Shown here piece after piece: positions 1-18,381 of a stretch of DNA of 64,000 nt. The notes beneath the pieces were generated by a model. The model was not told the origin of the DNA. It did no database searches and saw only the letters and a list, made by a program, of their open reading frames with translations. This stretch comes from an uncultured Acidobacteriota bacterium (lineage in GTDB: Bacteria; Acidobacteriota; Vicinamibacteria; Vicinamibacterales; JAKQTR01): positions 240,178-304,177 of the forward strand of contig CAWFQE010000013.1 in the NCBI GenBank assembly GCA_963817885.1. The letters run 5' to 3'. The stretch's first letter is position 1. Every line of letters begins with the position of its first letter. The position numbers and the translations under genes were made by a program.

Positions 1-1
1 G

Positions 2-193
2 CTGCTGAAACGAAAAGGGGTCCGGCCGTTCGACGCCCTGGGTACCGATTTCGATCCCCACCTGCACCAGGCCGTCACCTCCGAGCCGAGCCCGGACCAC
101 CGAGAGGGCGAAGTGATCGAAGAATTGCGGAAGGGCTATTTCCTGGGCGAGCGGCTGCTGAGGCCTGCCATGGTGAAGGTGGCCCGGGCGTGA
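2..193 (+). CDS. grpE: Nucleotide exchange factor GrpE, C-terminal part (5' truncated by window)
   Basis: Frame 2 reads ...FDPHLHQAV...GEVIEELRKGYFLGERLLRPAMVKVARA*; TGA 191-193 overlaps the dnaJ GTG (GTGA). Confidence 0.93.
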   Translation: MLKRKGVRPFDALGTDFDPHLHQAVTSEPSPDHREGEVIEELRKGYFLGERLLRPAMVKVARA

Positions 194-1338
194 GCAAGCG
201 CGATTACTACGACGTGCTGGGCGTTGCACGCGCGGCAACCGACCAGGAAATCAAGAGCGCCTACCGCAAGCTGGCGCTGCAACATCATCCGGATCGCAAC
301 GCCGGAGACAAGGCCGCCGAAGAGAAGTTCAAGGAGGCGGCCGAAGCCTACGCCGTTCTGGCCGATCGCGAGCGGCGCGCGGCCTACGACCGGTTCGGCC
401 ACGCAGGTGTTGGCGGCGCGGCCGGCCCCGGAGGCTTCGATCCGACCATCTTCTCGGATTTCGACGACATCCTCGGTGGCCTGGGCGACTTCTTCGGCTT
501 TGGCGATATTTTCGGCGGCGGCCGGCGAAGGCGAGGACCACAGCGGGGCGCGGACCTGCGGTACGATCTCGAAATCTCCTTCGAGGAATCGGCCCGCGGG
601 CTCGAAACGAGCATCCAGATTCCGAGGGTCGAGGCCTGCGAAGGATGCGGGGGCTCGGGCGCCGCGCCCGGCACCCAGTCGAGCAGGTGCCCGCAGTGCC
701 ACGGCCGCGGACAGGTCAGATACCAGCAGGGCTTCCTCGTCGTCGCGCGCACCTGCGGGCAATGCCAGGGAACGGGAACCATCATCGCGTCGCCCTGCAT
801 CAAGTGCCGCGGCACGGGACAGGTGCCCCGCGAGCGCAAGCTCACGGTGAAGATCCCGGCCGGCATCGCGTCGGGCCAGCGCCTTCGCCTGGTGGGTGAA
901 GGCGAGACCGGCGCGCTCGGCGGCCCGCCGGGCGATCTCTACGTCGTGGTCCAGGTTCAGGATCATGAGTTCTTCCGGCGGGAGGGCGACGACCTCATCT
1001 GCGAAGTCGCGGTGGGCTTCCCCACCCTGGTGCTCGGGGGCGAGATCAAGGTCGCCACGCTCGACGGCGAGACCTCCCTTCGAATTCCGGAAGGCACGGA
1101 AGCGGCCACGGTCTTCCGCCTGCGCGGGAAAGGCGTGCCCAACGTCAACGGACACGGACGCGGCGATCTCCACGTGGTCGTGCAGGTCAAGACGCCGAAG
1201 AAGCTCACGCGCGAGCAGCGATCGGCCCTCGAGCAGTTTGCGAAACTGCTCCCTGCCGAAAAGGCCGAAGCCCGCTCGATGGAACGCGAGTCCGATGATC
1301 GGGGCGTCTTCGGACGCGTCAAGGACCTCTTCAGCTAG
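190..1338 (+). CDS. dnaJ: Chaperone DnaJ
   Basis: J-domain with HPD, G/F-rich region, four CxxCxGxG zinc-finger repeats, C-terminal domain. Confidence 0.98.
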   Translation: MSKRDYYDVLGVARAATDQEIKSAYRKLALQHHPDRNAGDKAAEEKFKEAAEAYAVLADRERRAAYDRFGHAGVGGAAGPGGFDPTIFSDFDDILGGLGDFFGFGDIFGGGRRRRGPQRGADLRYDLEISFEESARGLETSIQIPRVEACEGCGGSGAAPGTQSSRCPQCHGRGQVRYQQGFLVVARTCGQCQGTGTIIASPCIKCRGTGQVPRERKLTVKIPAGIASGQRLRLVGEGETGALGGPPGDLYVVVQVQDHEFFRREGDDLICEVAVGFPTLVLGGEIKVATLDGETSLRIPEGTEAATVFRLRGKGVPNVNGHGRGDLHVVVQVKTPKKLTREQRSALEQFAKLLPAEKAEARSMERESDDRGVFGRVKDLFS

Positions 1339-1396
1339 GGCCGTGCCGATCTCGTCTCCCTCGACACCAGGCCTCGGGAGCCACGGGAACTGATCC

Positions 1397-2263
1397 ATGA
1401 GCAGCCCTGCGCCCGTGTGGCCGGCCCTCGAGCTGATCTTTCCGCCCGACGAACCCGGCCCGGTCTCGAACCAGGACCTCGCGCTCGCCGCACTCGACGG
1501 GCTCGAGCTGGTCGCCATCGAGGAGCTGACGCCGTCCGAGTGGCGTGTGTGCTTCCGCCGCGCCGTCGACCGGGACGCCGCCCGGCACGCGCTTTCAGAG
1601 GCCGCCGGCCTCAGCGTCGGCCTGCACGAGGTCGATGTCGAGGACGAGGACTGGGCCCGCCGCAGCCAGGCGGACATCCGATCGGTTCGGGTGGGCCGAT
1701 TCGTGATCGCTCCGCCGTGGGACGTGCCCGTCGGCCAGGCAGATGGGGACGTGGTGCTCGTCATCGAGCCGTCGATGGGATTCGGCACAGGCCACCACGC
1801 CTCGACTCGACTGTGCCTGGCGGCCCTTCAGCACATCGAAATCACGAACAGGCAGGTTCTCGACGTGGGCACGGGATCGGGGATCCTGGCCATGGCCGCC
1901 GCGCGCCTGGGTGCCTCGACGGTGACGGCGCTGGACATCGACCCGGATGCGATCTCTTCGGCCCGCGACAACCTGGTGTTGAACGGGCTGTCGGCGTCGA
2001 TCGAGTTGCGGGAGCTGGATTTCCGGAACGAGCGGCTCCCCCTGGCCGACGTCGTCGTTGCCAATCTGACCGGCGGCATGCTCTCGATGTCGGCGCCGCA
2101 GCTACTGGCCACCTGCAGGGCGGGCGGCAGCCTGATCGTGAGCGGCGTGCTGCGAACGGAAGAGGCCGAAGTCGTCGCGGCGTTCGGCGACCGCACGAGC
2201 ATCGGATGGCGCGGGACCGAAGACGAGTGGGTTGGCCTCGTGCTGATGAAGGCACGCGACTGA
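1397..2263 (+). CDS. prmA: Ribosomal protein L11 methyltransferase
   Basis: IEPSMGFGTGHHAST, VLDVGTGSGIL SAM motif; follows dnaJ. Confidence 0.93.
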   Translation: MSSPAPVWPALELIFPPDEPGPVSNQDLALAALDGLELVAIEELTPSEWRVCFRRAVDRDAARHALSEAAGLSVGLHEVDVEDEDWARRSQADIRSVRVGRFVIAPPWDVPVGQADGDVVLVIEPSMGFGTGHHASTRLCLAALQHIEITNRQVLDVGTGSGILAMAAARLGASTVTALDIDPDAISSARDNLVLNGLSASIELRELDFRNERLPLADVVVANLTGGMLSMSAPQLLATCRAGGSLIVSGVLRTEEAEVVAAFGDRTSIGWRGTEDEWVGLVLMKARD

Positions 2264-2286
2264 CCGATTTCGCGTCCGGCCCGCTG

Positions 2287-3032
2287 CTACAGATCACCCC
2301 ACAGGCTTTGCAGGACGGCGATGGCGACAAGCGGGGCTGCGTCCGCTCGAAGGGTCCGCCGTCCAAGCGTCAGCGTCACGCAGCCGTGTCGCCGCGCCGA
2401 TTCCACCTCGTCTTCCGTCCACCCGCCCTCAGGCCCGACCACGGCCAGCACGGAGTCAGGCACGGGCGCGGAGCGCAGCGCTTCCAACCCGGATGAGCTG
2501 TCGCTGGCGCCGGGCTCGACCAGCAGGATTCGCAGCGCCGACTGGTCCCGCTCGAGGCACTGGTCGAGGGAGCACGGCTGGCGCACCTCGGCCACCACGG
2601 CGCGCCCGCACTGCTTGACCGAGGCGACGGCGATTCGCTGCCATCGCTCGACGCGAAGCTGGCCCTGGAAGGCCCGCGGCGGCACGTCGGTGCGCGTGGT
2701 CAGCAGCGGCTGGATCGCCGAGACTCCCAGCATCACGGCATCCCTGACGACAGCGTCGAGCTTGTCGGCCTTGAGCACGGCCTGGGCGAGCGTCATCGCT
2801 CACGCGCGGTTCGGGCGCGGGCTCGACCCGGGCCGTCGGCTCGACGACGACCTCTCCGCGGCGCACCGAGGCAACGCGTGCTTCAACTTCCAGGCCGTGG
2901 CCGTCGAACACGCGGACCGCGTCACCGGCGCCAAGCCGCAGCACCCGCGTCAAGTGCAGGGCCTCCTGATCCGGCAGTCTGACCAGACCCAGGTCGGCGC
3001 GCAGCGCGGGGGCGTAGAATCGAGGCAGCCAT
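2287..3032 (-). CDS. rsmE: 16S rRNA m3U1498 methyltransferase RsmE (frameshifted near 2800 and near the start, probably sequence errors)
   Basis: N-part LPRFY...[15 protein letters not shown] in ORF 2456-3049; C-part VGPEGGWT...[13 protein letters not shown] in ORF 2287-2796. ATG at 3032 lies 6 nt after TATAAT. Confidence 0.88.
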
Positions 3033-3038
3033 GCGGCA

Positions 3039-3062
3039 ATTATAGTCAAGCCGATCTATACT
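3039..3062. promoter_or_regulatory. Back-to-back divergent -10 elements (TATAAT minus 3039-3044; TATACT plus 3057-3062)
   Basis: AT-rich hexamers in the 45-bp gap between divergent rsmE and kinase genes. Confidence 0.6.
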
Positions 3063-3077
3063 CCGGGTTGGCCGCGC

Positions 3078-4070
3078 ATGTTCTTTCGCGGACAGACCAT
3101 CGGCAAGTACAAGATCCTCTCAGCCCTGGGCAGCGGCGGGTTCGGCAGCGTCTACCTTGCCGAGGACACCTGGATCGGCAAGAAGGTCGCCATCAAGGTG
3201 CCGCACCGCCAGAACGTCGGACTTCGGCGAGCTGCTGCGCGAGCCCCGCCTGCTGGCCAGCCTGAGCCACCCGAACATCGTGTCGGTGCTGACGGCCGAG
3301 AAGCAGGACAACGTCTTCTTCATCGTGATGGAGTACGTCGCGGGCGAAACGCTCGAGAACATCATCGTGCGCGACGGCGCGATCGATCTGCACCGGGCGC
3401 TCGACTTCACGTGCCAGATCTGCAACGCGGTCGATCATGCGCACGGCCAGGGCGTCATCCACCGCGACCTGCGGCCGGCCAACGTGCTGATCACCGGCAG
3501 CGGCATGGTCAAGGTGGCCGACTTCGGCACGTCGCGGTTCCTCGAGCTGGCGGCCCACGGCACGACCGTGATCGGCAGCCCTCCCTACATGGCGCCCGAG
3601 CAGTTCCACGGCAAGGCGACCTTCGCCTCGGACATCTACTCGCTCGGCGTCACGATGTACCAGATGCTGACCGGCGCGCTGCCGTATCAGACGCCGGCGC
3701 CGGCCGATCTGGACAGGCTGATGAGCGGCGAGCTGGTCTCGCCGCCCCGGCTCGCGCAACGCGAGGATTCCGAAGGCGCATCAACGACATCATCCTGAAG
3801 GCGATGGCGCCCGACGTGACCGCCCGCTACCAGCGCGCCGGCGAGCTGCTCGCCGACCTGCTGCGGCTGCGGAGCAGGTCTCGCGCCAGGCGGACCGCAC
3901 GGGCGCAGCGCCCGGCCGGCCGTGACGCTCGCCCCGGAGACGCCGCCGGGACCTCAGCCTCAATCCCGTCCTGGGAACGGGACACGCCGCAGCCGCGGTT
4001 CTGCTGGCACTGTCACAAGCCGCTGCACGCGCGGTCGGACCGGTGCCCGTTCTGCGGCGAGGCACAGTAG
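3078..4070 (+). CDS. Hanks-type Ser/Thr protein kinase with C-terminal zinc ribbon (several apparent +1 frameshifts)
   Basis: [37 protein letters not shown] split across frames; ends [23 protein letters not shown]. Confidence 0.88.
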
Positions 4071-4093
4071 AATACGCGTTCAAGGAGACATTC

Positions 4094-5037
4094 ATGGCCT
4101 TTACCGGCACGGGCAAAGTCTGGATCAACGGGACGCTGGTCGACTGGGCCGACGCCAAGATCCATATCGCGTCGCACGTCATTCACTACGGCAGCGCCGT
4201 GTTCGAGGGGGCGCGCTGCTATGACACCGCCCAGGGCTCGGCGTGTTTCCGCCTGAACGCGCACAACACGCGCCTGATCAACTCCGCCAAGATCTACCGG
4301 ATGGACTGCGGGTACACGCTCGAACAGATCGAACAGCGCCGTCATCGAGACCATCAAGGCCAACGACTTCAAGGCGTGCTACATCCGGCCCATCGTCTAT
4401 CGCGGCTACGCGGCGCTCGGCGTGAACCCGTTCCCGTGCCCGGTCGACACGGCCATCCTGGTCTGGGAGTGGGGCGCCTACCTCGGCACCGACGCCGCTC
4501 GAGAAGGGCGTCGACGTCAAGGTCAGCTCGTGGACGCGCATGGCGCCCGACACGTTCCCGTCGCTCGCCAAGAGCAGCGCGAACTACGCCAACGCCGCGC
4601 TCATCAAGATGGAGGCGATCGTCGACGGGTACGCGGAGGGCGTGGCGCTCGACAGCTTCGGGTTCGTCAGCGAGGGCAGCGGCCAGAACATCTTCGTCGT
4701 GCGCGACGGCGTGCTCTACACGCCGCCGATGACCGCCTCGATCCTGCCCGGCATCACGCGCGACTCGGTGATCACGATCGCGCGAGGCCTCGGGTTACAA
4801 GGTCCGCGAGGAGATGATCCCGCGCGAGATGCTCTACATCGCCGACGAGGTCTTCTTCGCGGGCACCGCGGTCGAGATCACCCCGGTCCGCTCGGTCGAT
4901 CGCATCCAGATCGGCGCGGGCGCGCGCGGGCCCGATCACGCACCAGATTCAGCAGGCGTTCTTCGACATCGTCACCGGCCAGCGCTCCGACACGTACGAC
5001 TGGCTGACCTACCTGGATGGCGGCGCCGAGGGGCTGA
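4094..5037 (+). CDS. ilvE: Branched-chain amino acid aminotransferase (several apparent +1 frameshifts)
   Basis: RBS AAGGAG; [51 protein letters not shown] in successive frames. Confidence 0.9.
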
Positions 5038-5039
5038 GT

Positions 5040-6202
5040 ATGCACGTCAACGATCTGCTGCGAATCGCCGTCGAGCAGGGCGCGTCCGACCTTCACCTGA
5101 AGGTCGGCAGCTTCCCCATGATTCGGGTCGGCGGGCAGCTGGTGCCCGCCCTGCAGGACAAGCGGCTGACGCACGAGGACACGGTGGCGATGGCGGCGGC
5201 CGTCATGTCGGCGCCGCTGCGGGAGCGGTTCAAGGAAGCGCAGGAAGTCGACCTCGCCTACAGCGTGCCGGGCCTCGGACGCTTCCGGTGCAACGTGTTC
5301 CAGCAGCGCGGCACGATCGGCCTCGTGCTGCGCGTCATCCCGATGCAGATCCGGTCGATCGAGGAGCTCGGCCTGCCGACCGTGCTCTGACAAGATCGCC
5401 TCGGAAGAGCGCGGTCTGGTGCTCGTCACCGGCACGACCGGCAGCGGCAAGAGCACCACGCTGGCGGCGATGATCGATCACATCAACCGCAACCGGTGCG
5501 TCCACGTGATGACGGTCGAGGACCCGATCGAGTTCCTCCACCGCGACCACCTGGCGGTGATCAACCAGCGCGAGGTGCTGACCGACACCCGGGGCTTCGC
5601 CTATGCGCTGCGCAGCGCCCTGCGGCAGGACCCGGACGTCATCCTGGTCGGCGAGATGCGCGACTTCGAGACGATCGAGACGGCGCTGCTCGCGGCCGAG
5701 ACCGGGCACCTGGTGTTCTCGACGCTGCACACCCTGGATGCGACCGAGACGATCAACCGCATCATCGCGGTCTTCCCGCCCGCACCAGCAGAAGCAGGTC
5801 CGCCTGCAGCTGGCGAGCGTGCTCAAGGCCATCATCTCCCAGCGCCTGGTGCCCCGGGCCGACGGCGACGGCCGCTGCCCGGCCGTCGAGGTGCTCATCG
5901 CGACGCCGTTCATCCGCGACTGCATCGTCGACAAGGAGAAGACGCACCTCATCCAGGGCGCCATCGCCGCCGGCACGTCGCAGTACGGCATGCAGACGTT
6001 CGACCAGTCGCTGCTCGGCCTGCTGCAGCAGAAGAAGATCACCTACGACGAGGCGCTGCGTTGGGCCAGCAACGTCGACGAGTTCAAGCTGAAGGTCCAG
6101 GGCATCAGCACGGTCGGCGACGAGGCCCGCGATCAGATGGCCCGCACGGTGACGGGCGGCGGCGGCCCGATGCCCGACATCACGCAGCTTCTCGCGGCGT
6201 GA
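5040..6202 (+). CDS. pilT: Type IV pilus retraction ATPase PilT family (frameshifts near 5388 and 5780)
   Basis: [17 protein letters not shown], Walker [47 protein letters not shown]. Confidence 0.92.
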
Positions 6203-6211
6203 CCCGTTCCG

Positions 6212-6818
6212 ATGTTCCCGCGCGCCCCGCGACCCCGCCGCGCGCGGCCCGGCGGACCGCCGCCGGGCGATGATCCCAGCGCTCCTGTCGCCCGAGCAGC
6301 GCCGCCCGATCGGCCTACGCGACGGGCTTGCGCATGCTGGCCAGTCGCGAACTGTCGGAGCGCCGCGTCGCGCGATCGGCTGACGCGCACGGGGTTATCC
6401 CGCACGACGCCGTCGACCACGCCGCGGCGCGAACTGCGCGCGTCCGGAGCGCTCGACGACACAGCGCGCGGTGCGGGCCTGCGCGCGCACCCTCGTGCTG
6501 GTCCGGCGTCGCGGACGCCTGCGCGCCCGCCGCGAGCTGGAGCAGATGGGTTTCCGTCCGGCTCGTTGGTCGCCGTCCGTGCTCGACGAAATCCTCGATG
6601 CCCACAGCGGAGCAGGGCTTGCTCGATCACGCCGTGACCCGCCAGGTGCGCGGGCCGGAACGCCAACCTCGCCGATCCCGCCGTGTTCCGCCGCGTCCAG
6701 GGCGTCGCTCATTCGCCGCGGCTTCAGCCCGTCGCGCGTCCGCGCCGCCCTGCTCGCGCGCCTCAAGGGCCACGTGCCGGAGGAGATCGACTCCGACGCC
6801 GCGAGCGCGCCCGATTGA
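6212..6818 (+). CDS. recX: Recombination regulator RecX (multiply frameshifted; start uncertain)
   Basis: Fragments [42 protein letters not shown] in different frames; lies directly upstream of alaS. Confidence 0.72.
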
Positions 6819-6854
6819 GTCGACGAGTGAGGGCCCGGCCTGATGAATCTCGGC

Positions 6855-6863
6855 TGATACAAT
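6855..6863 (+). promoter_or_regulatory. Extended -10 (TGaTACAAT) 7 nt before alaS ATG, likely leaderless
   Basis: tgatacaat-agtccgc-ATG with no SD in between. Confidence 0.65.
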
Positions 6864-6870
6864 AGTCCGC

Positions 6871-9562
<2,692 letters not shown>

Positions 9563-9632
9563 CGCGCCAGGGCCGGCTTGGGGGCGGCCCGAATGCCGGG
9601 GCGCATGAACACTACTGCGACGGAGTCCTTGC

Positions 9633-9640
9633 GCCGATAA
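9633..9640 (+). promoter_or_regulatory. Possible sigma28-type -10 element GCCGATAA
   Basis: Perfect FliA -10 consensus about 60 nt upstream of the transglycosylase gene; the -35 match is poor. Confidence 0.35.
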
Positions 9641-9703
9641 CCAGGGTAGCGCACCAGCCGGGCGACCCGCCCGACGTGTATGCGCCCGAGTGCCCGAGTG
9701 AGC

Positions 9704-10408
9704 ATGCCACTGACCCGCATCCTGCCTGCCGTGGCCACCGTGGCGGTCTTCCTGCTCGGAGCGGCGTGGCCCGCCCGAGCCGACATCTACTCGTGCCGTG
9801 ACGACTCCGGCCAGCTCATGCTCTCCAATCGGCCGCTCTCCGGAAACGGCTGCACCGTCGTCGGCGGACCGTCGGCCGGCGTTCGGACCGCGCGCCCTGC
9901 CCAGGACCTCTACCCCAGCTCCTACGACGAGCACATCGAGCGGTATTCCAGGGACTACGGCGTCCGCCCCAACCTTGTGCGCGCGGTGATCCAGGTGGAG
10001 TCCGCCTACAATCCGCGGGCGGTCTCGCCAAAAGGCGCGATGGGCCTGATGCAGCTCATGCCGCAGACGGCCGCGGAGCACGGCGTCCGATTCCCGTTCA
10101 ATCCCGAGGACAATATCCGGGGCGGCGTCGCCTACCTGCGGTCGCTGCTCGACCGGTACAGCGGCAACGAGGAACTCTCGCTGGCGGCGTACAACGCCGG
10201 GCCCAGCGCCGTGGAGAAATACGGCAACACGGTTCCGCCCTACCGCGAGACGCAGCAGTATGTCAGCCGCGTCCGGAAAGCCTCGCCGGGGCTCTCATCC
10301 GGCGGACGGGTCGTCTACAAGTGGGTTGAGATGGTGGACGGCCGGCCGATTCCCAAGTACTCCAACACGAAACCCTCGTCCGGCCCGTACGAAATCCTGC
10401 AGCGGTAG
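9704..10408 (+). CDS. Secreted lytic transglycosylase (SLT domain)
   Basis: Signal peptide (ARA-D), VIQVES, AVSPKGAMGLMQLMP, LAAYNAG, ETQQYV. Confidence 0.92.
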   Translation: MPLTRILPAVATVAVFLLGAAWPARADIYSCRDDSGQLMLSNRPLSGNGCTVVGGPSAGVRTARPAQDLYPSSYDEHIERYSRDYGVRPNLVRAVIQVESAYNPRAVSPKGAMGLMQLMPQTAAEHGVRFPFNPEDNIRGGVAYLRSLLDRYSGNEELSLAAYNAGPSAVEKYGNTVPPYRETQQYVSRVRKASPGLSSGGRVVYKWVEMVDGRPIPKYSNTKPSSGPYEILQR

Positions 10409-10460
10409 AAGACCCGCCTCAGCGCCCGGCTGGCGCCCCGATTCCTGATCTGCCAGGCAT

Positions 10461-11132
10461 TCAGTTGCTGGCGGCCACCGCGTGCCACGGCTCGGTGGCG
10501 CGGCACGCTGCGTGGTGGCCAATGCCCTCCGGCGCGTAGATCTCCGATGTGTCGAGCACGGGCGGTTCCAGCAGGGCGGCCGGAAGCGACAGCAGCCCGC
10601 TCACGACCCACGGGCAGAACCTGCGGCCCGACTCCCTGGCAATCAGGATCCGCGCGGCGTCGACCGAGAGCGTCTCGCGGTAGCATCTCGGGCTGGTGAT
10701 GGCGTCGAACATGTCCATGACGCTGACGATCCGGACGGTCCAGTGCACCGCGCCCTGGGCCGACCCGTCAGGGTAGCCGGCCCCGTCCCACCGCTCGTGG
10801 TGGCACAGCACCACGCCGCACACTTCTTCGTCGAACCCTGCGCGGTGAGCGATTTCCATCCCCAGCTCGGGGTGAATCCTCAACTCCTGCCATTCGCGCT
10901 CGTTCGGACGCGCCGGCTTGCTGAGAATCCGTGCCGGCACGAGCATCTTGCCGACGTCGTGGAGCAACGCGCCGAGGCGAATCGTCTCGATGGCGTGCTG
11001 GTCCACGCCGAACTGCGTGGCGAGCCGGGTCGCATAGACCGCGACGCGGCGCGAATGGGCGGCGACCGAGGGGCGCGCCTGCTGCAATGTGGAGAAGATG
11101 GGCTCGATTCTGCCGAGATCGGTCTGGAGCAT
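10461..11132 (-). CDS. Stand-alone HD-GYP cyclic-dinucleotide phosphodiesterase
   Basis: HSRRV, LLHDVGK, HHERWDGAGYP, DMFDAIT.PR.YR; start placed at ATG 11132, downstream of the sigma54 site (the ORF extends to 11294). Confidence 0.88.
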   Translation of the reverse strand: MLQTDLGRIEPIFSTLQQARPSVAAHSRRVAVYATRLATQFGVDQHAIETIRLGALLHDVGKMLVPARILSKPARPNEREWQELRIHPELGMEIAHRAGFDEEVCGVVLCHHERWDGAGYPDGSAQGAVHWTVRIVSVMDMFDAITSPRCYRETLSVDAARILIARESGRRFCPWVVSGLLSLPAALLEPPVLDTSEIYAPEGIGHHAACRATEPWHAVAASN

Positions 11133-11217
11133 TGGCACCACGCGCGCGTCCCTGAGGAGATCTCGCCGTCCGCGCACCGCGCGCGGAAGCGTCCGGGACT
11201 TCCGTTCAGCCATCTTC

Positions 11218-11232
11218 GCAATGGCGATGCCA
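11218..11232 (-). promoter_or_regulatory. Sigma54 (-24/-12) promoter
   Basis: Minus strand TGGCATCGCCATTGC, an exact GG-N10-GC spacing, upstream of the HD-GYP gene. Confidence 0.7.
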
Positions 11233-11465
11233 CCGGGATCGGGCGCTCCGGCGTTCGCGGGCCCGCACGCGGCTGCACAGCATGGCAGTTGCACGGGCGA
11301 ATTCGCCGTTTGTGGCAGCTACACTTCTTGGAGCGGCGACACGCGAATCGTGTGGGCTGTGAGAAGCGGTGTGAAAGCCGTCATCGCTTGCGCGGATCGT
11401 CGGCGAACCGCCACCAGGCGTCGACGCTGGCGTCGGCCGGCCGTTCCAACGTAAGATCCCGCGAC

Positions 11466-14324
11466 ATGACCGTCGCCGAATTCATCGCGAAGTGGCGCCA
11501 TGTGCAATTGACGGAACGGTCGTCAGCACAGACGCACTTCATCGACCTGTGCCGGCTGGTCAGCCACCCCGATCCGGTAGCAGCAGATCCAGACGGCACC
11601 TGGTTCACCTTCGAGCGCGGAGCCGCGAAGGCCCTCGGCGGCGACGGATGGGCTGATGTCTGGAAAAAGGGCTTCTTTGGCTGGGAGTACAAAGGGCTCC
11701 ATCGGGATCTCGCAGCCGCCTACGGACAACTGCTCCTCTATCAAGGCGCCCTCGAAAATCCGCCGCTCCTCGTCACGTGCGACACCGATCGGATACTGGT
11801 GCACACGCACTTCCCGAATACGCCCAGCGTGACCCATGAGCTGACGCTCGAAGGGCTGGCCGACGCCGCGCAATTCTCGATTCTGCATGCGGTCTTCCAC
11901 GATCCCGATCGCCTGCGGCCTGGCAAGACCATCCAGGCCATCACTGAAGAAGCCGCAGGCAGGATCACGGACATCGCCCAGGCGTTGCGCGGCCGGGGCG
12001 TTCCGCCGACGAAGGTTGCGCGGTTTCTCGATCGCCTCGTGTTCTGCCTGTTCGCAGAAGATGTGGGGCTGCTCCCCGAGCGGACATTCAGCCGCGTGAT
12101 CGACAACACAAAGGGCGACCCTGAGCGCTTCCGTGTGGTGCTCGGGAGCCTCTTCGCGGCCATGGCCGGAGGCGGAGATTTTGGTGCCGATCGGATTGCT
12201 CATTTCGATGGCGACGTGTTCAAGGACGCTGACGTGCTCGACCTGACTGTCGATGAGATCAGGCAGCTCGCCGCCGTGACGGCGCTCGACTGGGCCGCTA
12301 TCGACCCCTCGATCTTCGGCACCTTGTTCGAGCGGGCGCTCGATCCCGACAAGCGGTCGCAGCTCGGAGCGCATTACACCAGCCGCGAAGACATCGAGAG
12401 GATCGTCGATCCGGTCGTCATGGAACCACTGCGCAACGAATGGACCACGGTGCGCGAGCAGGTGTCGGCCCTGCTGGAGGGCAAGGTCACGCCGAAGGGC
12501 CACAAGAAGGCCGAGCGCCTTCTCCGGGACTTTCTTGGCCGACTCCAGGCGGTCACCGTGCTCGACCCGGCCTGCGGGTCAGGGAACTTCCTCTACGTGA
12601 CGCTTCAGAAGCTCAAGGACCTGGAAAAGGAAGTCATCGTGTTCGCCGCGTCCCAGCACTTCGGGTTCTTTCCAGGTGTCGGACCCTGGCAGCTCCACGG
12701 CATCGAGCTGAATAAGTACGCGTTCGAGCTGGCGCAGATGACCGCGTGGATTGGCTATCTCCAATGGGTGAAGCTCAACGGCCTGGGCCAGCCCGACGAG
12801 CCCATTCTTCGACCATTGACCACGTTCGAGTGCAAGGACGCCGTCCTGGACCTCCAGCCGGACAACGTCGTCGTGGAGCCAGAGTGGCCGGCCGCGGAGT
12901 TCATCGTCAGCAATCCACCGTTCCTTGGGGTGCGGAAACTGCGCGACAACCTCGGCGACGAGTATGTCGAAGGCCTGTTCACTCTTTGGAATGGCCGGGT
13001 GCCGGCCGAGGCGGACTACTGCTGCTACTGGTTCGAGAAGGCTCGCGCGCAGGTAGAAGCAGGAAAGACGCGGCGGGCAGGGTTGCTCGCTACCCAGGGA
13101 ATCCGTTCTGGGGCGAATCGTGAAGTGCTGCGCCGCATCAAGCAGACAGGCGACATCTTCTTCGCGGTCAGCGACCGGGAGTGGGTCTTGGATGGCGCCA
13201 GCGTGCACGTGTCAATGGTGGGATTCGGCAACAGAGATGAGAGCATCCACGTGCTCGATGATCGTCACGTATCGGTGATTCATGCGGATCTGACATCGAA
13301 AGTCGACCTGACCACCGCAGTGAGGCTGCCTTCCGACCGCGGTGTTTCCTTCATGGCCGACACGAAGGGCGGCGCGTTCGACATCGAAGGGGAGACGGCG
13401 ACTGGTTGGCTCCAGGCGGTCAACCCGCATGGACGACCAAATAGTGATGTCGTTCGACCGTGGACGAATGGTTTCGATGTTACCCGCCGCTCAAGAGGAC
13501 GATGGATCATTGACTTCCCTCCCGATACGTCGCGGGCCGTCGCATCGAGGTACGAGATCCCATTTGAGCACCTGATGTCGAAGGTCAAACCTAGGCGCGA
13601 CGACCACAGAAATCATGTGCTGGCCGAGCGATGGTGGCAACACGAACGCCCTCGGCCCGAAATGCGGCTCGTACTGTCGAATCTGTCCAGATTCCTGGCG
13701 ACGCCAGAAGTCGCGAAGCATCGTCCGTTCGTATGGCTGTCTCCGGATGTTCTGGCAGACCATCAACTGATCGTATTCGCGACGAATGACGACCGTACGT
13801 TCGGTATCCTGCACTCACGGGTGCATGCGATATGGGCGCTAAGTATGGGGTCTCGACTGGAAACGCGCCCTCGTTATACTCCAACCAGCATATTCGAGAC
13901 TTTCGCCTTCCCTCAGTGTTCAGAGGCTAGATCTGCCGATATCGCGGCCGCTGCTTGCGAGTTGAATGTCGTCCGCGACCGATGGCTGAATCCGCCTGAG
14001 TGGACTCGCAAGCACAGCATCACGTTCCCAGCGAGCATCGAGGGGCCGTGGCGCCACATAGTCGAGGCCCCGAACGCCGATGGAATCGGCACCGCAAAGT
14101 ACACCCGACTGGTGCCCGTGGACGCCGGCGCGGAGAGGGCCCTGGCGAAGCGCACCCTAACCCATCTCTACAACGAGAAACCGACCTGGCTTCGGGATCT
14201 GCACGCCGCGCTCGACGACGCGGTGCTCGACGCCTATGGACTGCCACGAGACGCCGACGATCAGCTGATGGTCAGTCACCTGCTCGCGCTGAATCATTCG
14301 CGCGCCAAGGCTGAACAAGGCTAG
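11466..14324 (+). CDS. MmeI-like type IIL/IIG restriction-modification fusion (endonuclease, N6-adenine MTase, TRD)
   Basis: N-terminal ERSSAQTHFIDLC...ADV...WEYKG (PD-ExK); GAHYTS; motif I VLDPACGSGNFL; motif IV SNPPF; C-terminal RYTPTSIFETFAFP and TLTHLYNE...LDDAVLDAYG. TAAGAT lies 8 nt before ATG 11466. Confidence 0.92.
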   Translation: MTVAEFIAKWRHVQLTERSSAQTHFIDLCRLVSHPDPVAADPDGTWFTFERGAAKALGGDGWADVWKKGFFGWEYKGLHRDLAAAYGQLLLYQGALENPPLLVTCDTDRILVHTHFPNTPSVTHELTLEGLADAAQFSILHAVFHDPDRLRPGKTIQAITEEAAGRITDIAQALRGRGVPPTKVARFLDRLVFCLFAEDVGLLPERTFSRVIDNTKGDPERFRVVLGSLFAAMAGGGDFGADRIAHFDGDVFKDADVLDLTVDEIRQLAAVTALDWAAIDPSIFGTLFERALDPDKRSQLGAHYTSREDIERIVDPVVMEPLRNEWTTVREQVSALLEGKVTPKGHKKAERLLRDFLGRLQAVTVLDPACGSGNFLYVTLQKLKDLEKEVIVFAASQHFGFFPGVGPWQLHGIELNKYAFELAQMTAWIGYLQWVKLNGLGQPDEPILRPLTTFECKDAVLDLQPDNVVVEPEWPAAEFIVSNPPFLGVRKLRDNLGDEYVEGLFTLWNGRVPAEADYCCYWFEKARAQVEAGKTRRAGLLATQGIRSGANREVLRRIKQTGDIFFAVSDREWVLDGASVHVSMVGFGNRDESIHVLDDRHVSVIHADLTSKVDLTTAVRLPSDRGVSFMADTKGGAFDIEGETATGWLQAVNPHGRPNSDVVRPWTNGFDVTRRSRGRWIIDFPPDTSRAVASRYEIPFEHLMSKVKPRRDDHRNHVLAERWWQHERPRPEMRLVLSNLSRFLATPEVAKHRPFVWLSPDVLADHQLIVFATNDDRTFGILHSRVHAIWALSMGSRLETRPRYTPTSIFETFAFPQCSEARSADIAAAACELNVVRDRWLNPPEWTRKHSITFPASIEGPWRHIVEAPNADGIGTAKYTRLVPVDAGAERALAKRTLTHLYNEKPTWLRDLHAALDDAVLDAYGLPRDADDQLMVSHLLALNHSRAKAEQG

Positions 14325-14496
14325 CGCGACGCCGCCCCCGCTCCTTCGTGCCGGCGGTGGCAATTCCAGACCACCCCTCGTCAGTCGAATCGTATGTACC
14401 GGGCTGGCATCAGGACTCCAGTGACAGCCAGGATTGGCTGAGGCCGCCGCAGCGGAACGGCCTTGTGCTGATAACCGTCAGCTTGACTGGGAATCC

Positions 14497-14769
14497 TTAT
14501 GCGCCGGACGCGGTCGACCGAAGCCACGACCCGATTCGGTCGAGCGTGGCCGAGTCGAAGTCGCCGGCGTAGATGCGGCGGAATGTCTGCACCCTGAGTT
14601 CGACGGGATCGGTGATTCCCTGGGCCCGGAGGCTCGACTCGACGAGCCGTTTCGCTGCGTCCCACATGGCGCTGCTCATCCGGAGGCGCTCTTCACCCGA
14701 GCGGGACATCAGGATCCGGCGCTGGATCGCTTCAGCCTCCGGCGTAGTGTCGTGTGCCGCGCCGTTCAT
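14497..14769 (-). CDS. Small helical protein of the type paired with nucleotidyltransferases (putative TA partner)
   Basis: 90 aa DTTPEAEAIQ...SGEERLRM...; ATGA-coupled to the upstream nucleotidyltransferase remnant. Confidence 0.6.
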   Translation of the reverse strand: MNGAAHDTTPEAEAIQRRILMSRSGEERLRMSSAMWDAAKRLVESSLRAQGITDPVELRVQTFRRIYAGDFDSATLDRIGSWLRSTASGA

Positions 14770-14918
14770 GCCCGGAGTTCCCGGACGATGTCGATGTCGC
14801 GCGTCATGCGGGGCTGGGCGTAGTATCCCAGAGCCAGGGACCCGCTGAGCACGTAGGGGATGTCAGCCTCGTCCAAACGAGAGGTTACGATGCGAAGCAG
14901 ATCGAGGACGTCGTTCAT
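14766..14918 (-). pseudogene. Truncated Pol-beta-like nucleotidyltransferase
   Basis: 50 aa: IPYVLSGSLALGYYAQPRMTRDIDIV (GS...DxD motif), then RELRA* follows at once. Confidence 0.7.
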
Positions 14919-14939
14919 GCTGCCTGCCAGGGCGCTGAA

Positions 14940-14948
14940 AGTGTACCA
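14940..14948 (-). promoter_or_regulatory. Extended -10 TGgTACACT for the NTase/partner pair
   Basis: Minus strand tggTACACT, 21 nt upstream of ATG 14918. Confidence 0.5.
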
Positions 14949-15049
14949 CGGCGACGGTCCCGAACCCCTCCAGCCCTGCCTCCCACGACGGTCTCCCCTG
15001 CGGTTCCTCCGCCGCCGCGCATTTGCAGGGGGAACCAAGCCTAGTCTGG

Positions 15050-15370
15050 CGCGGCGAGGTCCGCTACAGCCCGGCACGGTGCCTCGCCACGAAGACCGAG
15101 ATCCTGACGTGCGACCCAGACCCGAAGCACATCAGCACGACCTACGTCGAACGCCAGAACCGCACGAGGCGCTTGTCGATGCGCCGGTTCACGCGGCTTA
15201 CGAACGCGTTCAGCAAGAAGATCGAAAACCACGTCGCGGCCGTGGCGCTCTGCTTCACGTATTACCCCTTCGGGCGAGTCCATCAGACGCTTCGCGTGCC
15301 CCCCGCAATGGAACCGGGTGTTGCCGATCACGTCCGGACGATCGCCGAAATCGTGGAACTCCCAGGATAG
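15050..15370 (+). pseudogene. IS1-family DDE transposase C-terminal remnant
   Basis: RYSP..C......DPDPKHISTTYVERQN.T.R.SMRRFTRLTNAFSKKIENH...R.HQTLR..PAM..GV.DH; the N-terminal part is missing and conserved positions are substituted. Confidence 0.85.
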
Positions 15371-15416
15371 ATTGGTGGACTCCACCGGAACAATGGCGAG
15401 TTCCGACGGAGCGTTT

Positions 15417-15926
15417 CTAACGAGCGTCGATCTTCTCACGTCTCCGCGGATGTGGCGGTTCAGCGAGGTCCTTTGCCGGCGTTGCCCTTACGGCATCCCC
15501 GATTCGGAACACTGGCGCCACGATTGGAGGGAGGTTCATTCGGACTGACATCGACTGAATGAACTCTCGTCCGAACGGCCATGCGTTGAAGACGCCATTG
15601 AGTTCTGCGAACTCTCCAAGTGTCTTCTTGGACGTCGTAACTTGACAGGGCACGCTATAGAGAAGCTCGAAGACCGCGCGGACATCCACGACCGGCTTTT
15701 CGGCTGGCCGGTCCTCTTGCACAACCTGTGCTTCCATGAACGCCGTCACATAGAAGTCATCGCCGCTGCGCTCACCCGCTTTCGCCCCGGAATTGATGTT
15801 CAGCCGGACCTTGCCGACTTCTCGGGGCGATCGAATCGACGTCTTGGCGATCCCTTCGATGAGCCTAACGCCCTTCAACTGCACAGCTCTGATGAGTTCG
15901 GCCAACTCGCTCTTCGTCTCAGTCAT
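15417..15926 (-). CDS. SecB-like chaperone (TAC chaperone)
   Basis: VQLKGVRL..., V.VRAVFELLY, FAELNGVFNAWPFGREFIQSMSVRMNLPPIVAP (SecB-fold C-terminal signature); ATGA overlap with the antitoxin stop. Confidence 0.85.
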   Translation of the reverse strand: MTETKSELAELIRAVQLKGVRLIEGIAKTSIRSPREVGKVRLNINSGAKAGERSGDDFYVTAFMEAQVVQEDRPAEKPVVDVRAVFELLYSVPCQVTTSKKTLGEFAELNGVFNAWPFGREFIQSMSVRMNLPPIVAPVFRIGDAVRATPAKDLAEPPHPRRREKIDAR

Positions 15927-16366
15927 GCCGCCACCCCGTCCCGATCGCCTGCGCGCTTGGACGCAACGAGTCGAAGGGTCGGCTTCGGCGACTCGTTGAT
16001 GCGCATGTTTGACCACCCGCCGCGGGGAGATTCCCAAATCCTGTGACTACCACTGAGCGTCGGTCTACGAACGGAAATTTCGATTCCGCAGTTCAAGGCA
16101 TCCGCCACGTCGGCGATCGTCCTAAGCGTCAGGTTCCGACTGCCGGAGAGCAGCTGCGAAACGAATCCTTTAGTCTTCCCAAGGCGTTGCGCCAGTTCCG
16201 TTCTTTTGACGCCTTCAGATTCCAGCGCATCACACAGAGCTTCAGTAACGTCAAGAATCAGTTCCTCTTGACGCAAGAGCCGGCGGTTCTGCGCGGAGGC
16301 TCCCTCGAACCGTTCGTAGTCGGTCATTTCAACGTCGGTTCGTGGTTCTCTGTTCATATTCATCAT
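15923..16366 (-). CDS. HigA-like XRE-HTH antitoxin with C-terminal extension (putative chaperone-addiction tail)
   Basis: TELAQRLGKTKGFVSQLLSGSRNLTLRTIADVADAL HTH, then a ~45-aa tail with IWESPRGGW; alternative starts at 16357 and 16327. Confidence 0.85.
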   Translation of the reverse strand: MMNMNREPRTDVEMTDYERFEGASAQNRRLLRQEELILDVTEALCDALESEGVKRTELAQRLGKTKGFVSQLLSGSRNLTLRTIADVADALNCGIEISVRRPTLSGSHRIWESPRGGWSNMRINESPKPTLRLVASKRAGDRDGVAA

Positions 16367-16733
16367 TCTCCTTTAGCACCCGGAGTGCCCTCTGGATGTC
16401 CTCAGGGGACAGCTTGTCTTTCTTTTTCCTGGTTCCAACAGCGACCAAAAATCGGCACCCGGGCCGAAAGCCTCCGATGAACCTAAGTTGGAAGCTCTTG
16501 AACTCCCATAGCTTCCGGCCCTCTCCGGCTGCGCGTTCGCCAAGCTGCCTGAACTGCTCTCGGTTCGATATGAGCCCGGTACCTGCGAATTTCCGAAACA
16601 AGGCGAGAATCTTAGCCTGGTCGCCCGGACCGAGGCCCTGAAAATAGTCGCGACTAGGCATCGTCCCGTGCGAGTCGGACGCCCATTCGACAGTGCCCCA
16701 TTCGCCCTTCGCCGCGATCTTCGGCGTATCCAC
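16329..16733 (-). CDS. HigB/RelE (Gp49-like) toxin
   Basis: PSRDYFQGL...KILALF...FRQL...LWEFK...LRFI.....FLV..G..KKKDKLS..DI.RA; first gene of a toxin-antitoxin-chaperone operon. Confidence 0.82.
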   Translation of the reverse strand: MDTPKIAAKGEWGTVEWASDSHGTMPSRDYFQGLGPGDQAKILALFRKFAGTGLISNREQFRQLGERAAGEGRKLWEFKSFQLRFIGGFRPGCRFLVAVGTRKKKDKLSPEDIQRALRVLKENDEYEQRTTNRR

Positions 16734-16741
16734 AGCGCATG

Positions 16742-16795
16742 AGTGTACATATAACTATACGACATGTCCACGAAAACGTTTAGTCTTATCTAAAC
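16742..16795 (-). promoter_or_regulatory. TAC operon promoter/operator region
   Basis: Minus strand TATAGT and TACACT hexamers (TACACT 8 nt before the toxin GTG); imperfect palindrome GTGTA-N8-TATAC (16743-16760) and inverted repeat GTTTAG-N6-CTAAAC (16778-16795). Confidence 0.5.
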
Positions 16796-16824
16796 AGTAC
16801 GTAAAGGACTTGGCATGGCGTTCC

Positions 16825-16841
16825 CAAACTGACCCGCTACC
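16825..16841. repeat. IS1-family-like terminal inverted repeat (CAAACTGACCCGCTACC; reverse complement GGTAGCGGGTCAGTTTG)
   Basis: Resembles from memory the GGTAGTGGGTCAGTTTG-type ends of this IS1 subgroup; sits at the edge of the AT-richer block just before the rpsT promoter region. Confidence 0.65.
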
Positions 16842-16942
16842 CTCTGCGGGTGCGGCTCGCGCAAAGGACCGTGAAATGCTATGATCAGAGATTCTTGGGC
16901 TGGTATGGGACCTGCCCGTCGGGCCTGTGTTCAGAGGTGACT

Positions 16943-17218
16943 GTGGCTACTCACGCATCGGCGCTCAAGGCGCATCGGCAGAACATCAAGCGGCGCGAGC
17001 ACAATCGGCAAATGCGTTCGAAGCTTCGCAACGCGCTCCGGGATATCCGCGCGACGATCGATCAGGACGACCTCGCCGGCGCCAAGAAGCAGCTCAAGGC
17101 GACCGTCTCGCTCATCGATAAGATGGTGGGCAAGGGCATCATCCACCGCAACGCCGCCGCCCGCTACAAGTCCCGGCTGGTCACCAAGATCGACAAGCCA
17201 GCGCAGCCGACGGCCTGA
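16943..17218 (+). CDS. rpsT: 30S ribosomal protein S20
   Basis: GTG start with GAGG RBS; ATHASALK..RQ...R..NR..RSKLR...IDK.VGKGIIHRN.AARYKSRL. Confidence 0.97.
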   Translation: MATHASALKAHRQNIKRREHNRQMRSKLRNALRDIRATIDQDDLAGAKKQLKATVSLIDKMVGKGIIHRNAAARYKSRLVTKIDKPAQPTA

Positions 17219-17404
17219 CCTTTCGGGGGACGCGCCGCCCGAGCGAGCGCGCGTTCCCTGGGGTCGCCGCCCGCCACGTGGCAGATCGTTTCCCGGGCGG
17301 GACACTTCGGCGCCGGAGCCCTCAGTGCTTCGACTCGCAAACACGGTTCCGCATGCGTGCCAGGCAACCGGTCCAATCGCTCGCTCACCACTGAGTCTCG
17401 GGCG

Positions 17405-17428
17405 CACGAGTTCGTCACCGAACTCGTG
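17405..17428. terminator. Perfect 10-bp hairpin after the holA stop
   Basis: CACGAGTTCG-tcac-CGAACTCGTG between convergent rpsT and holA; no clear U-tract. Confidence 0.55.
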
Positions 17429-17439
17429 AATCGAACGAC

Positions 17440-18381
17440 TCAGGAACACAATTCGACGACCAGCCGCTCGAGCAGGACCCGCGCATCGCCGCGCGAGGTC
17501 TTCAAGGCGAGGTCTGTGCGGAACACGGCCTCCACGGCCGTCCCGGCCTTGGCCGGCGCCATCTTCGTGCGAACGAACCAGGCCAGCTGGCCGAGGACCA
17601 TCACCGGGAACTCCCCCGCTTCCAGCCGCAGTGCCAACTCGCGCAGCGCTTCGCCGCGCTCCCCCCGCTCGATCGCGTTGACCATGGCCCAGGGATCCTG
17701 CGAGGTGGCCGCGCCCGCCACTTCCTGGACCGCCGACTCGGTCACGATGCCGTCGGGACCGGTGAACATCAGCGCCCGTTCGAATTCCGCGCGCAGCCGG
17801 CCAATATCGTTCCCGGCAAGTTTCGAGAGCCGGCGCGCCGCTCCAGGCTCGATGCGGACGCCCTCGCGAGCGGCCTCGGCACGTATCCACGCGGCCGCCC
17901 CGTCCGCGCCTGCGAGCGGATCGCAATCGACCAGCGTGCCGTGCTTCTCGAGGAGCGTGCTCGCCTTCAACCGCCGGTCCAGTCCTTCCCCGACGACGAA
18001 CACCACGACGGCGTGCGGCGCAGGCGACTTGAGATACTCCTCGAAGGCGGCCAGCTCCGCTCCGCCCCCCTCGGAGTCCTTCAAAACGGCCAGCAGCTTC
18101 TCGGCCTGGTGAATGATCACCATCCGGACCGGAGCCATCATCGGCAGCGTTCGCGCCAGGTCGAGCAGCGCCCACAGCTGCCTGCGCGCCTCCGGCTTCG
18201 AGTCACTCCCGAAGAGCCGGTCGAGGTTGAACGGGCGCAGGCCTTCGTCGAGCGTGTCGGAGAGCATCGAGCCCAGGCGGGACTTTCGCTCATCGTCCCG
18301 GCCGGTGATCAGGTAGACCCGGTCGAGGCGTCCGGCCTGTATCTGCTGTTCGAACGCGTCGGGTGTGAGTCGTGTGGCCAC
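17440..18381 (-). CDS. holA: DNA polymerase III delta subunit
   Basis: VYLITG.D, FNLD, ARTLPMMAP.RMVII, TDLALKTS; canonical leuS-lptE-holA order. Confidence 0.9.
   Translation of the reverse strand: MATRLTPDAFEQQIQAGRLDRVYLITGRDDERKSRLGSMLSDTLDEGLRPFNLDRLFGSDSKPEARRQLWALLDLARTLPMMAPVRMVIIHQAEKLLAVLKDSEGGGAELAAFEEYLKSPAPHAVVVFVVGEGLDRRLKASTLLEKHGTLVDCDPLAGADGAAAWIRAEAAREGVRIEPGAARRLSKLAGNDIGRLRAEFERALMFTGPDGIVTESAVQEVAGAATSQDPWAMVNAIERGERGEALRELALRLEAGEFPVMVLGQLAWFVRTKMAPAKAGTAVEAVFRTDLALKTSRGDARVLLERLVVELCS

Follow-up and report, generated by a model that had tools for sequence, protein, structure and literature searches.

A HigB-HigA-SecB-like toxin-antitoxin-chaperone operon as the probable passenger of a decayed IS1-family element in an Acidobacteriota chromosome

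The 64-kb window analyzed here (64,000 nucleotides of one contig from an uncultured Acidobacteriota bacterium, assembly GCA_963817885.1) carries on its minus strand, at 16733-15417, three full-length open reading frames (ORFs) arranged head to tail in the order toxin, antitoxin, SecB-like chaperone. This toxin-antitoxin-chaperone (TAC) operon lies between a 3' fragment of an IS1-family transposase and a terminal inverted repeat like those that bound related insertion sequences (IS) (Table 1). An earlier note, made from the sequence alone, had reported three coupled minus-strand ORFs, the C-terminus of a transposase and an IS1-like end, and all were found where it had placed them or close by. 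We consider it probable that the operon is a passenger of an IS1-family transporter IS (tIS) that is now stranded after loss of the left end and most of the transposase.

Table 1. Features of the locus, matching soil-metagenome contigs and three intact related elements (window positions, except for the last three rows, which are numbered within their own loci)
Feature	Position	Strand	Details
MmeI-like type IIL restriction-modification gene	11514-14324	+	936 aa; Pfam MmeI_Mtase 1e-26, MmeI_hel 5.5e-11, MmeI_TRD 2.5e-10
Small ORF, no family	14497-14769	-	90 aa; nearest protein-atlas clusters unnamed
Nucleotidyltransferase-like N-terminus (GS...DIDIV motif)	14766-14915	-	49 aa; weak Pfam Aminoglyc_resit, E 0.0036
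IS1-family DDE transposase, 3' fragment	15029-15370	+	residues 165-274 of 274; N-terminal 60% gone
SecB-like TAC chaperone	15417-15926	-	169 aa
HigA-type XRE-HTH antitoxin	15923-16327	-	134 aa from ATG 16327
HigB-type (Gp49-like, RelE superfamily) toxin	16329-16733	-	134 aa, GTG start
Promoter-like site	16742-16770	-	-35 TGGACA, 17 nt spacer, -10 TACACT; consensus pattern match
Right terminal inverted repeat (IRR)	16823-16841	-	outer end 16841; 17-mer core 16825-16841
Presumed target-site copy	16842-16849		CTCTGCGG; 8 bp adjoining the IS end, partner lost
Metagenome contig	14928-15154		bridges the start of the transposase fragment
Metagenome contig	15933-16140		within the antitoxin
Metagenome contig	16927-17190		within rpsT
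Intact element L128	3777-7449		3,673 bp; perfect 8-bp duplication ACAAATCA
Intact element L136	535-4558		4,024 bp; perfect 8-bp duplication TGCCCGGC
Intact element L148	3844-6645		2,802 bp; perfect 8-bp duplication AACCCCTC

The three genes form one operon. The antitoxin stop overlaps the chaperone start in an ATGA (15923-15926), and the toxin stop (16329-16331) ends 1 nt ahead of the antitoxin ATG at 16327. The longest antitoxin frame, 15923-16366, gives 147 aa from its first ATG, with upstream ATGs at 16357, 16363 and 16366, but ATG 16327 is the likelier start because homologue alignments begin at residue 14-15 of the 147-aa ORF. The promoter-like site lies 8 nt 5' of the toxin start and points inward from the IS end; one such site was found, against 0.3 expected. 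GC content across the three genes is 58.0%, compared with 68.7% in the left flank (1-11279) and 67.6% in the right flank (16870-64000), and every contig of the host genome is at 66-67%. The earlier note had called the operon AT-richer than the host from a hand count of 27 G+C in the 60 nt at 16321-16380, which is exact. Rfam and tRNA scans of 9-20 kb returned no matches. DNA from soil metagenomes (four runs from two studies) contains short contigs with 0-1 differences each to the locus; none among the four runs spans the operon.

Identification of the chaperone relies on a profile, because single-sequence searches are too weak: with phmmer, the best match in the Protein Data Bank (PDB) was Rv1957 of Mycobacterium tuberculosis (Mtb; 5mtw_C), at E 0.42. 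A database search recovered 13 homologues besides the protein itself, at 34-51% identity, and the resulting 14-sequence profile matches one PDB sequence only, again 5mtw_C, at E 1.4e-10 over positions 9-138. The AlphaFold2 (AF2) model (pLDDT 84, pTM 0.74) begins with an N-terminal helix, continues through four long strands and a helix of 30 residues, and closes with a short C-terminal helix. In Foldseek the four 5mtw chains lead the ranking (E 1.6e-9 to 1.5e-8), with TM-scores of 0.65/0.78 at the match of best E and up to 0.80 on the target, followed by E. coli and H. influenzae SecB (1ozb/1qyn/1fx3); in all, 23 matches reach E<=0.001. On profile and predicted structure, the third protein is thus of the SecB fold and nearest to TAC chaperones. 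All invariant columns of the family alignment are kept in the window protein, whose sequence was included in computing the invariance. PADLOC returns a weak match to PD-T4-9_C (E 5.4e-4). Searches of the host genome detected this chaperone as its sole SecB-fold gene.

The toxin was identified in the same manner. Gp49 is matched by 29/30 aligned members of the toxin family (E<=0.01), and a profile of 30 homologues finds Streptococcus pneumoniae HigB (6af3_A) in the PDB at E 1.1e-13 and Mtb HigB1 at E ~0.09. The AF2 model (pLDDT 92.9) ends in a long C-terminal helix at 110-133; in Foldseek the HigB structures 6af4/6af3 rank at the top, followed by HigB1 (7nbu_Y/7awk). Residues E77, K79, R84 and K103, which vary little or not at all among family members, align with E66, R68, R77 and K95 of Mtb HigB1, whose toxicity is reported to be lost on mutating R68, R77 or K95 (PMC9098466). 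Profile and model together identify a toxin of the Gp49/HigB type with a predicted RelE-like fold and its basic catalytic residues kept. A single-sequence PDB search had also returned an ABC-transporter match, which was discarded as spurious.

Could the operon be a decaying remnant with a weakened toxin, kept because its arrival was recent or its presence neutral? The host element has decayed, V99 of the toxin (VAVGT) replaces the His of an 'HGF' motif seen in 24/30 aligned homologues, and the toxin's own Pfam score is marginal. Yet profile alignment shows that the active Mtb HigB1 likewise has no His in this motif, and the window toxin keeps all four family residues. Its model is of high confidence, the invariant chaperone columns are intact, and none of the three ORFs is truncated, their starts and stops being coupled, so we regard loss of function as unlikely.

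The antitoxin carries a Pfam HTH_3 domain (E 2.7e-8). Across 25 aligned homologues, conservation covers the N-terminus and the HTH, and a C-terminal tail of ~45 residues varies; in the window protein this tail reads ...HRIWESPRGGWSNMRINE...DRDGVAA. At W105, 11 of the 25 have Trp and 16 an aromatic residue, and 15 end in -AA, as does the window's VAA. For Mtb HigA1, the chaperone-binding motifs are described as Trp/Arg-based (PMC6377645), and the hydrophobic C-terminus as a ClpX degron within the chaperone-binding region (PMC8165232). A predicted complex of four chaperone copies with antitoxin residues 85-134 scored 0.09 against a mark of 0.32, which weighs neither way on binding. The earlier note had read the triad as a TAC, and this is borne out in the SecB fold of the third protein, which holds in profile, model and structure search alike, the Gp49/HigB toxin and the XRE-HTH antitoxin with its C-terminal extension.

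How widespread are such operons? We searched a single genome for each species using the chaperone alignment, confirmed 91 of 142 pattern matches, kept 80 loci and scored partner genes by tblastn (E<=1e-3). The window-like toxin, antitoxin and chaperone occur in the same order (T-A-C) at 35 of the 80, mostly with 4-nt (ATGA) overlaps; another 14 have antitoxin and chaperone alone and 31 the chaperone alone, where the partners may come from other families. Many of the records are labelled Acidobacteriota (Bryobacterales, Terriglobales and others), Binatia, Planctomycetota or Gemmatimonadota. LeuS identity of 67-72% puts the host within Acidobacteriota, close to Vicinamibacterales. Nearer to the host the chaperone family is sparse: of 151 genomes sampled from the order 5 have it, the host included, as do none of 12 other genomes of the host family, and it is missing from both same-genus genomes, G001 and G002.

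These distributions bear on whether the SecB-like protein is instead a general export or holdase chaperone that happens to stand beside HigBA. The host genome, scored as 100% complete, yielded no canonical SecB (PF02556), and some TAC chaperones are reported to replace SecB in E. coli (PMC3581621). Set against this are the overlap of the chaperone ATG with the antitoxin stop and the position of homologues downstream of an antitoxin-like gene at 49 of the 80 loci (35 T-A-C plus 14 with antitoxin and chaperone). Moreover, absence of the gene from the same-genus genomes and from 146/151 sampled genomes of the order excludes a core function. We consider an incidental chaperone highly improbable.

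The transposase fragment lies in an ORF at 15023-15370 (plus strand), of which tblastn with full-length relatives aligns 15029-15367; it is 76% identical to the transposase of locus L001 and 59% to that of L010. No other transposase piece was found by tblastn in the window. Alone, the fragment matches PF03400 at E 0.031, under the cut-off, whereas its full-length relatives score 30.7-38.3 bits with Pfam DDE_Tnp_IS1 (cut-off 24.1); their best NCBIfam match is transpos_IS1, at 55-59 bits and under its cut-off of 100.

At the other side of the operon, the 17-mer core of the repeat (GGTAGCGGGTCAGTTTG) is one base off the consensus of related elements, GGTAGTGGGTCAGTTTG, in agreement with the earlier proposal of an IS1-type end. 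In orientation the repeat fits the right end of an element with a plus-strand transposase, and the 1,471 bp between transposase stop and repeat are occupied by the TAC operon. Across the whole 5.57-Mb genome two sites come within one mismatch of GGTAGTGGGTCAGTTTG, each beside a transposase 3' fragment and in the correct orientation; the repeat is not there by chance. Its outer end can be placed exactly at 16841 because 8-bp target duplications fix the ends of the relatives. No left inverted repeat was found in the window. The range 11000-15200 contains no exact second copy of the presumed target site and two copies with one mismatch, about the number expected by chance. No intact transposase of this kind was detected in the host genome, just a second fragment on contig C4, and the element is thus unable to transpose by itself.

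That second fragment belongs to another decayed copy of the same IS1 subgroup (C4:311427-313259; L172 1928-3760), with the IRR GGTGGTGGGTCAGTTTG. It keeps the last ~57 transposase residues and ~1.65 kb of cargo with a 444-aa ORF that by eye resembles a DNA methyltransferase (DPPFNSN motif). Its layout is as in the window: a 3' transposase stub, downstream cargo and IRR.

What complete elements of this kind look like can be judged from their transposase relatives. Of 600 pattern matches examined, at least 504 were confirmed, and the best 80 loci were kept. Terminal repeats were paired by taking the nearest site on each side, with <=4 mismatches and an outer 7-mer from a short list. In 66 of the 80 loci, GGTAGTGGGTCAGTTTG repeats occur as a pair of left and right inverted repeats (IRL and IRR) around the transposase, and the ends start with GGTAGTG on both sides. 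The 66 paired elements are 1,814-5,390 bp long, of which the transposase gene takes just ~830 bp. Target duplications could be tested in the 64 whose locus includes the flanks: 56 are perfect 8-bp duplications, three have one mismatch, one is of 7 bp and four elements have none. Since the duplications lie outside both ends, the elements have transposed as units that include their cargo. Ends of the form GGnnnTG and duplications of 8-9 bp are described as IS1-family traits (PMC6807381, PMC10425158). In 41 of the 66 elements at least 400 bp, and at most 4,153 bp, separate the transposase stop from the IRR.

Cargo was tallied from the 150 longest of 176 ORFs of >=95 aa in the 66 elements, at Pfam E<=1e-5. 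HTH_3 leads with 11 matches, followed by Peptidase_M78 (five), P63C and Fic (four each), AAA_21 of AbiEii type and DUF3800 (three each), and N6_N4_Mtase, SDH_protease and dCTP-deaminase-like proteins (two each); SocA_Panacea, PIN and RhuM were matched once each, and nested IS genes are also among the cargo. The ORF calling was crude (longest non-overlapping frames in GC-rich DNA), and many of the 257 ORFs, of which 150 are clustering singletons, are probably not genes.

Three intact elements of this kind enclose a TAC. At three of the 80 chaperone-based loci (L128, L136 and L148) a transposase of the same type stands beside a T-A-C operon, and in each the repeat pair encloses both and is flanked by a perfect target duplication (Table 1). 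Intact elements with both ends and similar cargo, for which the earlier note had proposed a search in related genomes, therefore exist. In L128 the operon shares the strand of the transposase; in L136 and L148 the two are on opposite strands. The toxins of L136 and L148 are 53% identical and their transposase C-termini 36%, while L128 and L148 have transposases that are 61% identical and unrelated toxins; by BLASTP, the window toxin matches none of the three. Such discordance between cargo and carrier points to repeated capture of TACs by the IS1 subgroup, apparently on at least three independent occasions.

The complete elements share two further features. Just inside the left repeat, 34 of the 66 have a conserved small ORF of ~85-125 aa (for example L010 4899-5159, L148 6312-6569 on the minus strand, and L128 4477-4851) with the motif ...AVALGRLGG.KGG.ARA..L....R.EIA.KAA..RW. 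It has no Pfam match, is not present in the window and may serve the element in an accessory or regulatory role. The first ~35 nt of the left ends (L001-L080) have a subterminal consensus with TTGAC at ~31-35, which an inward promoter might use as its -35 box. A TTG within positions 29-36 is found in 31/66 left ends and 15/66 right ends, and so discriminates weakly between IRL and IRR.

Taken together, the data show related elements moving as units with their cargo, some of it TAC, and they show as well the folds and families of the proteins, the coupling of the genes and the identity of the right IS end. That the TAC of the window was itself such a passenger is what the geometry of fragment, operon and repeat suggests. 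Several points weigh against this reading. In the window, the repeat starts GGTAGCG, with CG in place of the family-defining TG, and because the left repeat and the target duplication are gone, the common origin of TAC and transposase fragment is not directly demonstrable. Among the 80 transposase-based loci none has a toxin or chaperone match and one has a weak HTH match, and in L128, L136 and L148 the operon lies upstream of the transposase, not downstream as in the window. At the protein level, the chaperone sequence alone has no Pfam (SecB included) or NCBIfam match, the toxin alone reaches 23.0 bits with Pfam Gp49 (PF05973), short of the gathering cut-off of 23.9, and PADLOC gives no toxin match and no system-level call. 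The earlier note had proposed such a check, and the faint match of the chaperone is what it yielded. Even so, the carriage of the TAC by a transporter IS is well supported, and with 56 of 64 testable relatives flanked by perfect duplications the earlier proposal of a TAC inside a decayed, passenger-carrying IS1 element stands.

The order of genes in the intact elements does raise the question of two events. In that case a second IS1 element, on the minus strand and with the TAC upstream of its transposase and on the same strand, would have contributed the repeat at 16841 as its left end, and a deletion would have fused this element tail to tail to the 3' end of another copy. L128 has just this order (IRL, small ORF, T-A-C, transposase) on one strand, left and right repeats have the same 17-bp core, so the core cannot separate them, and the locus is a mosaic with a restriction-modification gene and truncated ORFs. 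Such a history, however, needs two elements and a deletion that removed precisely the IRR from one and the transposase from its partner, whereas a single element with downstream cargo has the architecture common among relatives (41/66). Moreover, the small ORF that adjoins the IRL in L128 and L148 is not in the window, where the toxin starts just 91 bp from the repeat; nor is a TTG 29-36 nt inside the end, weak discriminator though it is. The decayed copy on C4 repeats the layout of the window. A double event strikes us as rather improbable, and a single decayed tIS remains the reading that we prefer.

The insertion itself is delimited by the two same-genus genomes. G001 and G002 are collinear with the window from 1 to ~11280 and again from 16870 on, with ~130-280 bp between the two blocks; therefore ~11400-16850 (5.45 kb) is an insertion. 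It sits in the intergenic region from which an HD-domain gene and rpsT diverge, and homology to the same-genus genomes resumes within ~15-30 bp of the IS end. Foreign origin of the TAC is supported by its lower GC, by the joining of the left flank to rpsT in G001 and G002, and by its sparse occurrence in the order.

The same insertion carries the MmeI-like gene, in a region missing from G001 and G002. This gene may be former upstream cargo, may have replaced the left half of the IS, or may have arrived separately. As it shares the insertion with the TAC, the locus amounts to a small defense-type island upstream of rpsT. Between the MmeI-like gene and the transposase fragment, the stop of the 49-aa nucleotidyltransferase-like ORF overlaps the start of the 90-aa ORF (14497-14915); the pair may be a broken gene or a small toxin-antitoxin (TA)-like pair at the point where the transposase is truncated. 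On the far side of rpsT, a ~125-bp sequence at ~17320-17444, between rpsT and a holA-like gene, is repeated on host contigs C6, C10, C3 and C9 and in related genomes, with ~17 copies in the relative G012; it looks like a small dispersed repeat or a miniature inverted-repeat transposable element (MITE). A genome of the same family (L171, G007:C4:135200-152600) has different and larger content between the homologue of the HD-domain gene and rpsT, and the site may be a recurrent insertion hotspot.

Functionally, the closest model is the Mtb TAC HigB1-HigA1-SecB^TA (Rv1955-Rv1956-Rv1957), which has the same T-A-C order. Its HigB1 is described as a Gp49-like HigB with a long C-terminal helix, as in the window toxin (PMC9098466), and its HigA1 as an XRE-HTH protein with a C-terminal extension with Trp/Arg and a small aliphatic end, as in the window antitoxin (PMC6377645, PMC8165232). 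The tail motif is WESPRGGWSNMR in the window and WHRLSSYR and WARHISVR in Mtb HigA1. Rv1957 is the best match of the window chaperone in both profile and fold. Identity in structural alignments is nonetheless low (17-19% for the chaperone, 15-16% for the toxin), and unlike the Mtb system the window operon is in an Acidobacteriota host and inside an IS1-family element.

Closer in setting is HigBAC of E. coli NT1F31, reported as a HigB-HigA-SecB-like system on a mobile element, as in the window, with an anti-phage action in which the antitoxin tail and the lambda tail protein gpV, which has a similar aromatic pattern, compete for the chaperone by way of aromatic residues (bioRxiv 10.1101/2024.02.24.581848). 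There the carrier is a prophage and here a transposable element, a comparison by description and not by sequence. CmdTAC/PD-T4-9 (PMC11618068), whose PD-T4-9_C the window chaperone weakly matches, differs in its toxin: CmdT is described as an ADP-ribosyltransferase, whereas the window toxin is of the HigB ribonuclease type.

An IS1-family transporter IS with its TAC probably inserted ~100 bp upstream of rpsT; its left end and the first 60% of the transposase were lost later, which left the cargo immobile in the chromosome. The working of the operon may be pictured by analogy with the Mtb TAC and HigBAC. HigB would be a ribosome-dependent mRNA endonuclease; HigA would bind and neutralize it and repress the operon through its HTH. 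The HigA tail, with its conserved Trp and ClpX-degron-like VAA, would be unstable unless bound by a SecB-like tetramer, which would shield HigA from proteolysis. Titration of the chaperone by a phage structural protein or by unfolded proteins would lead to degradation of HigA, and HigB would halt translation. The TAC may benefit the host, through abortive infection, or the element, through stabilization after insertion. Both the dependence of the antitoxin on its chaperone and the anti-phage role that the earlier note had assigned to the TAC are suggested by this likeness to characterized systems; as a whole, that first interpretation is partly supported, its readings of the triad as a TAC and of the TAC as lying inside a decayed IS1 element having withstood checks able to refute them.

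A broader idea is that the single-ORF IS1 subgroup, with its GGTAGTGGGTCAGTTTG ends and 8-bp duplications, is a widespread and re-loaded vehicle for TA and defense cargo in soil phyla, for which a TAC is first of all an addiction module. Were this so, cargo and IRR would outlast the transposase, and decay with retained cargo and IRR is indeed seen twice in the host genome, in the window and on C4 with its putative methyltransferase cargo. We offer this as a tentative suggestion that is more likely wrong than right.

How do these elements compare with known ones? The relatives share with the IS1 family the Pfam IS1 transposase, the GGTAGTG (GGnnnTG) ends and the 8-bp duplication, but where classical IS1 has the InsA/InsB frameshift pair, they have one long transposase ORF in 1.8-5.4 kb. 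The window copy, unlike a complete IS1, has one end and 40% of the transposase. The ISMhu11 subgroup of ISfinder has the single-ORF form and this range of sizes. IS derivatives with passenger genes are termed transporter IS (PMC9330008), and TA modules are described as integral passengers of Tn3-family transposons (PMC7157771; mentioned in PMC9330008), although these belong to another class of transposon and carry two-gene pairs, as opposed to a three-gene TAC on an IS1-type tIS.

Described carriers of TACs are prophages, plasmids and genomic islands. The spread of these systems by horizontal transfer has been reported (PMC3581621). Our literature search, made outside ISfinder/TnPedia and the supplementary tables of TAC surveys (e.g. 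Table S1 of PMC3581621), turned up no publication that connects TACs or SecB-like chaperones to insertion sequences or to passengers of IS1. The pairing of IS1 and TAC thus appears undescribed, although both components are of known kinds. The earlier note had tentatively supposed the arrangement to be undescribed in Acidobacteria; within the literature searched this applies to the pairing and not to the operon, since homologous T-A-C operons occur in many Acidobacteriota records and the family is present in 5/151 genomes of the host order.

The locus reveals no new mechanism. What it adds is the observation of an IS1 subgroup with TACs as bona fide passengers: a simple IS-type element carries them, the target duplications of three intact relatives prove its boundaries, and the window would be a stranded copy in an Acidobacteriota chromosome. 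The subgroup is well marked, and its cargo is rich in TA and defense-type genes, namely XRE/ImmA pairs, Fic proteins, AbiEii-like ATPases, a dCTP-deaminase-like protein, methyltransferases, PIN and SocA-Panacea proteins. As a small, tractable three-gene module from an under-studied phylum, the operon may serve for gauging the generality of chaperone addiction, and its carrier would provide a concrete vehicle for the dispersal of TACs in soil bacteria.

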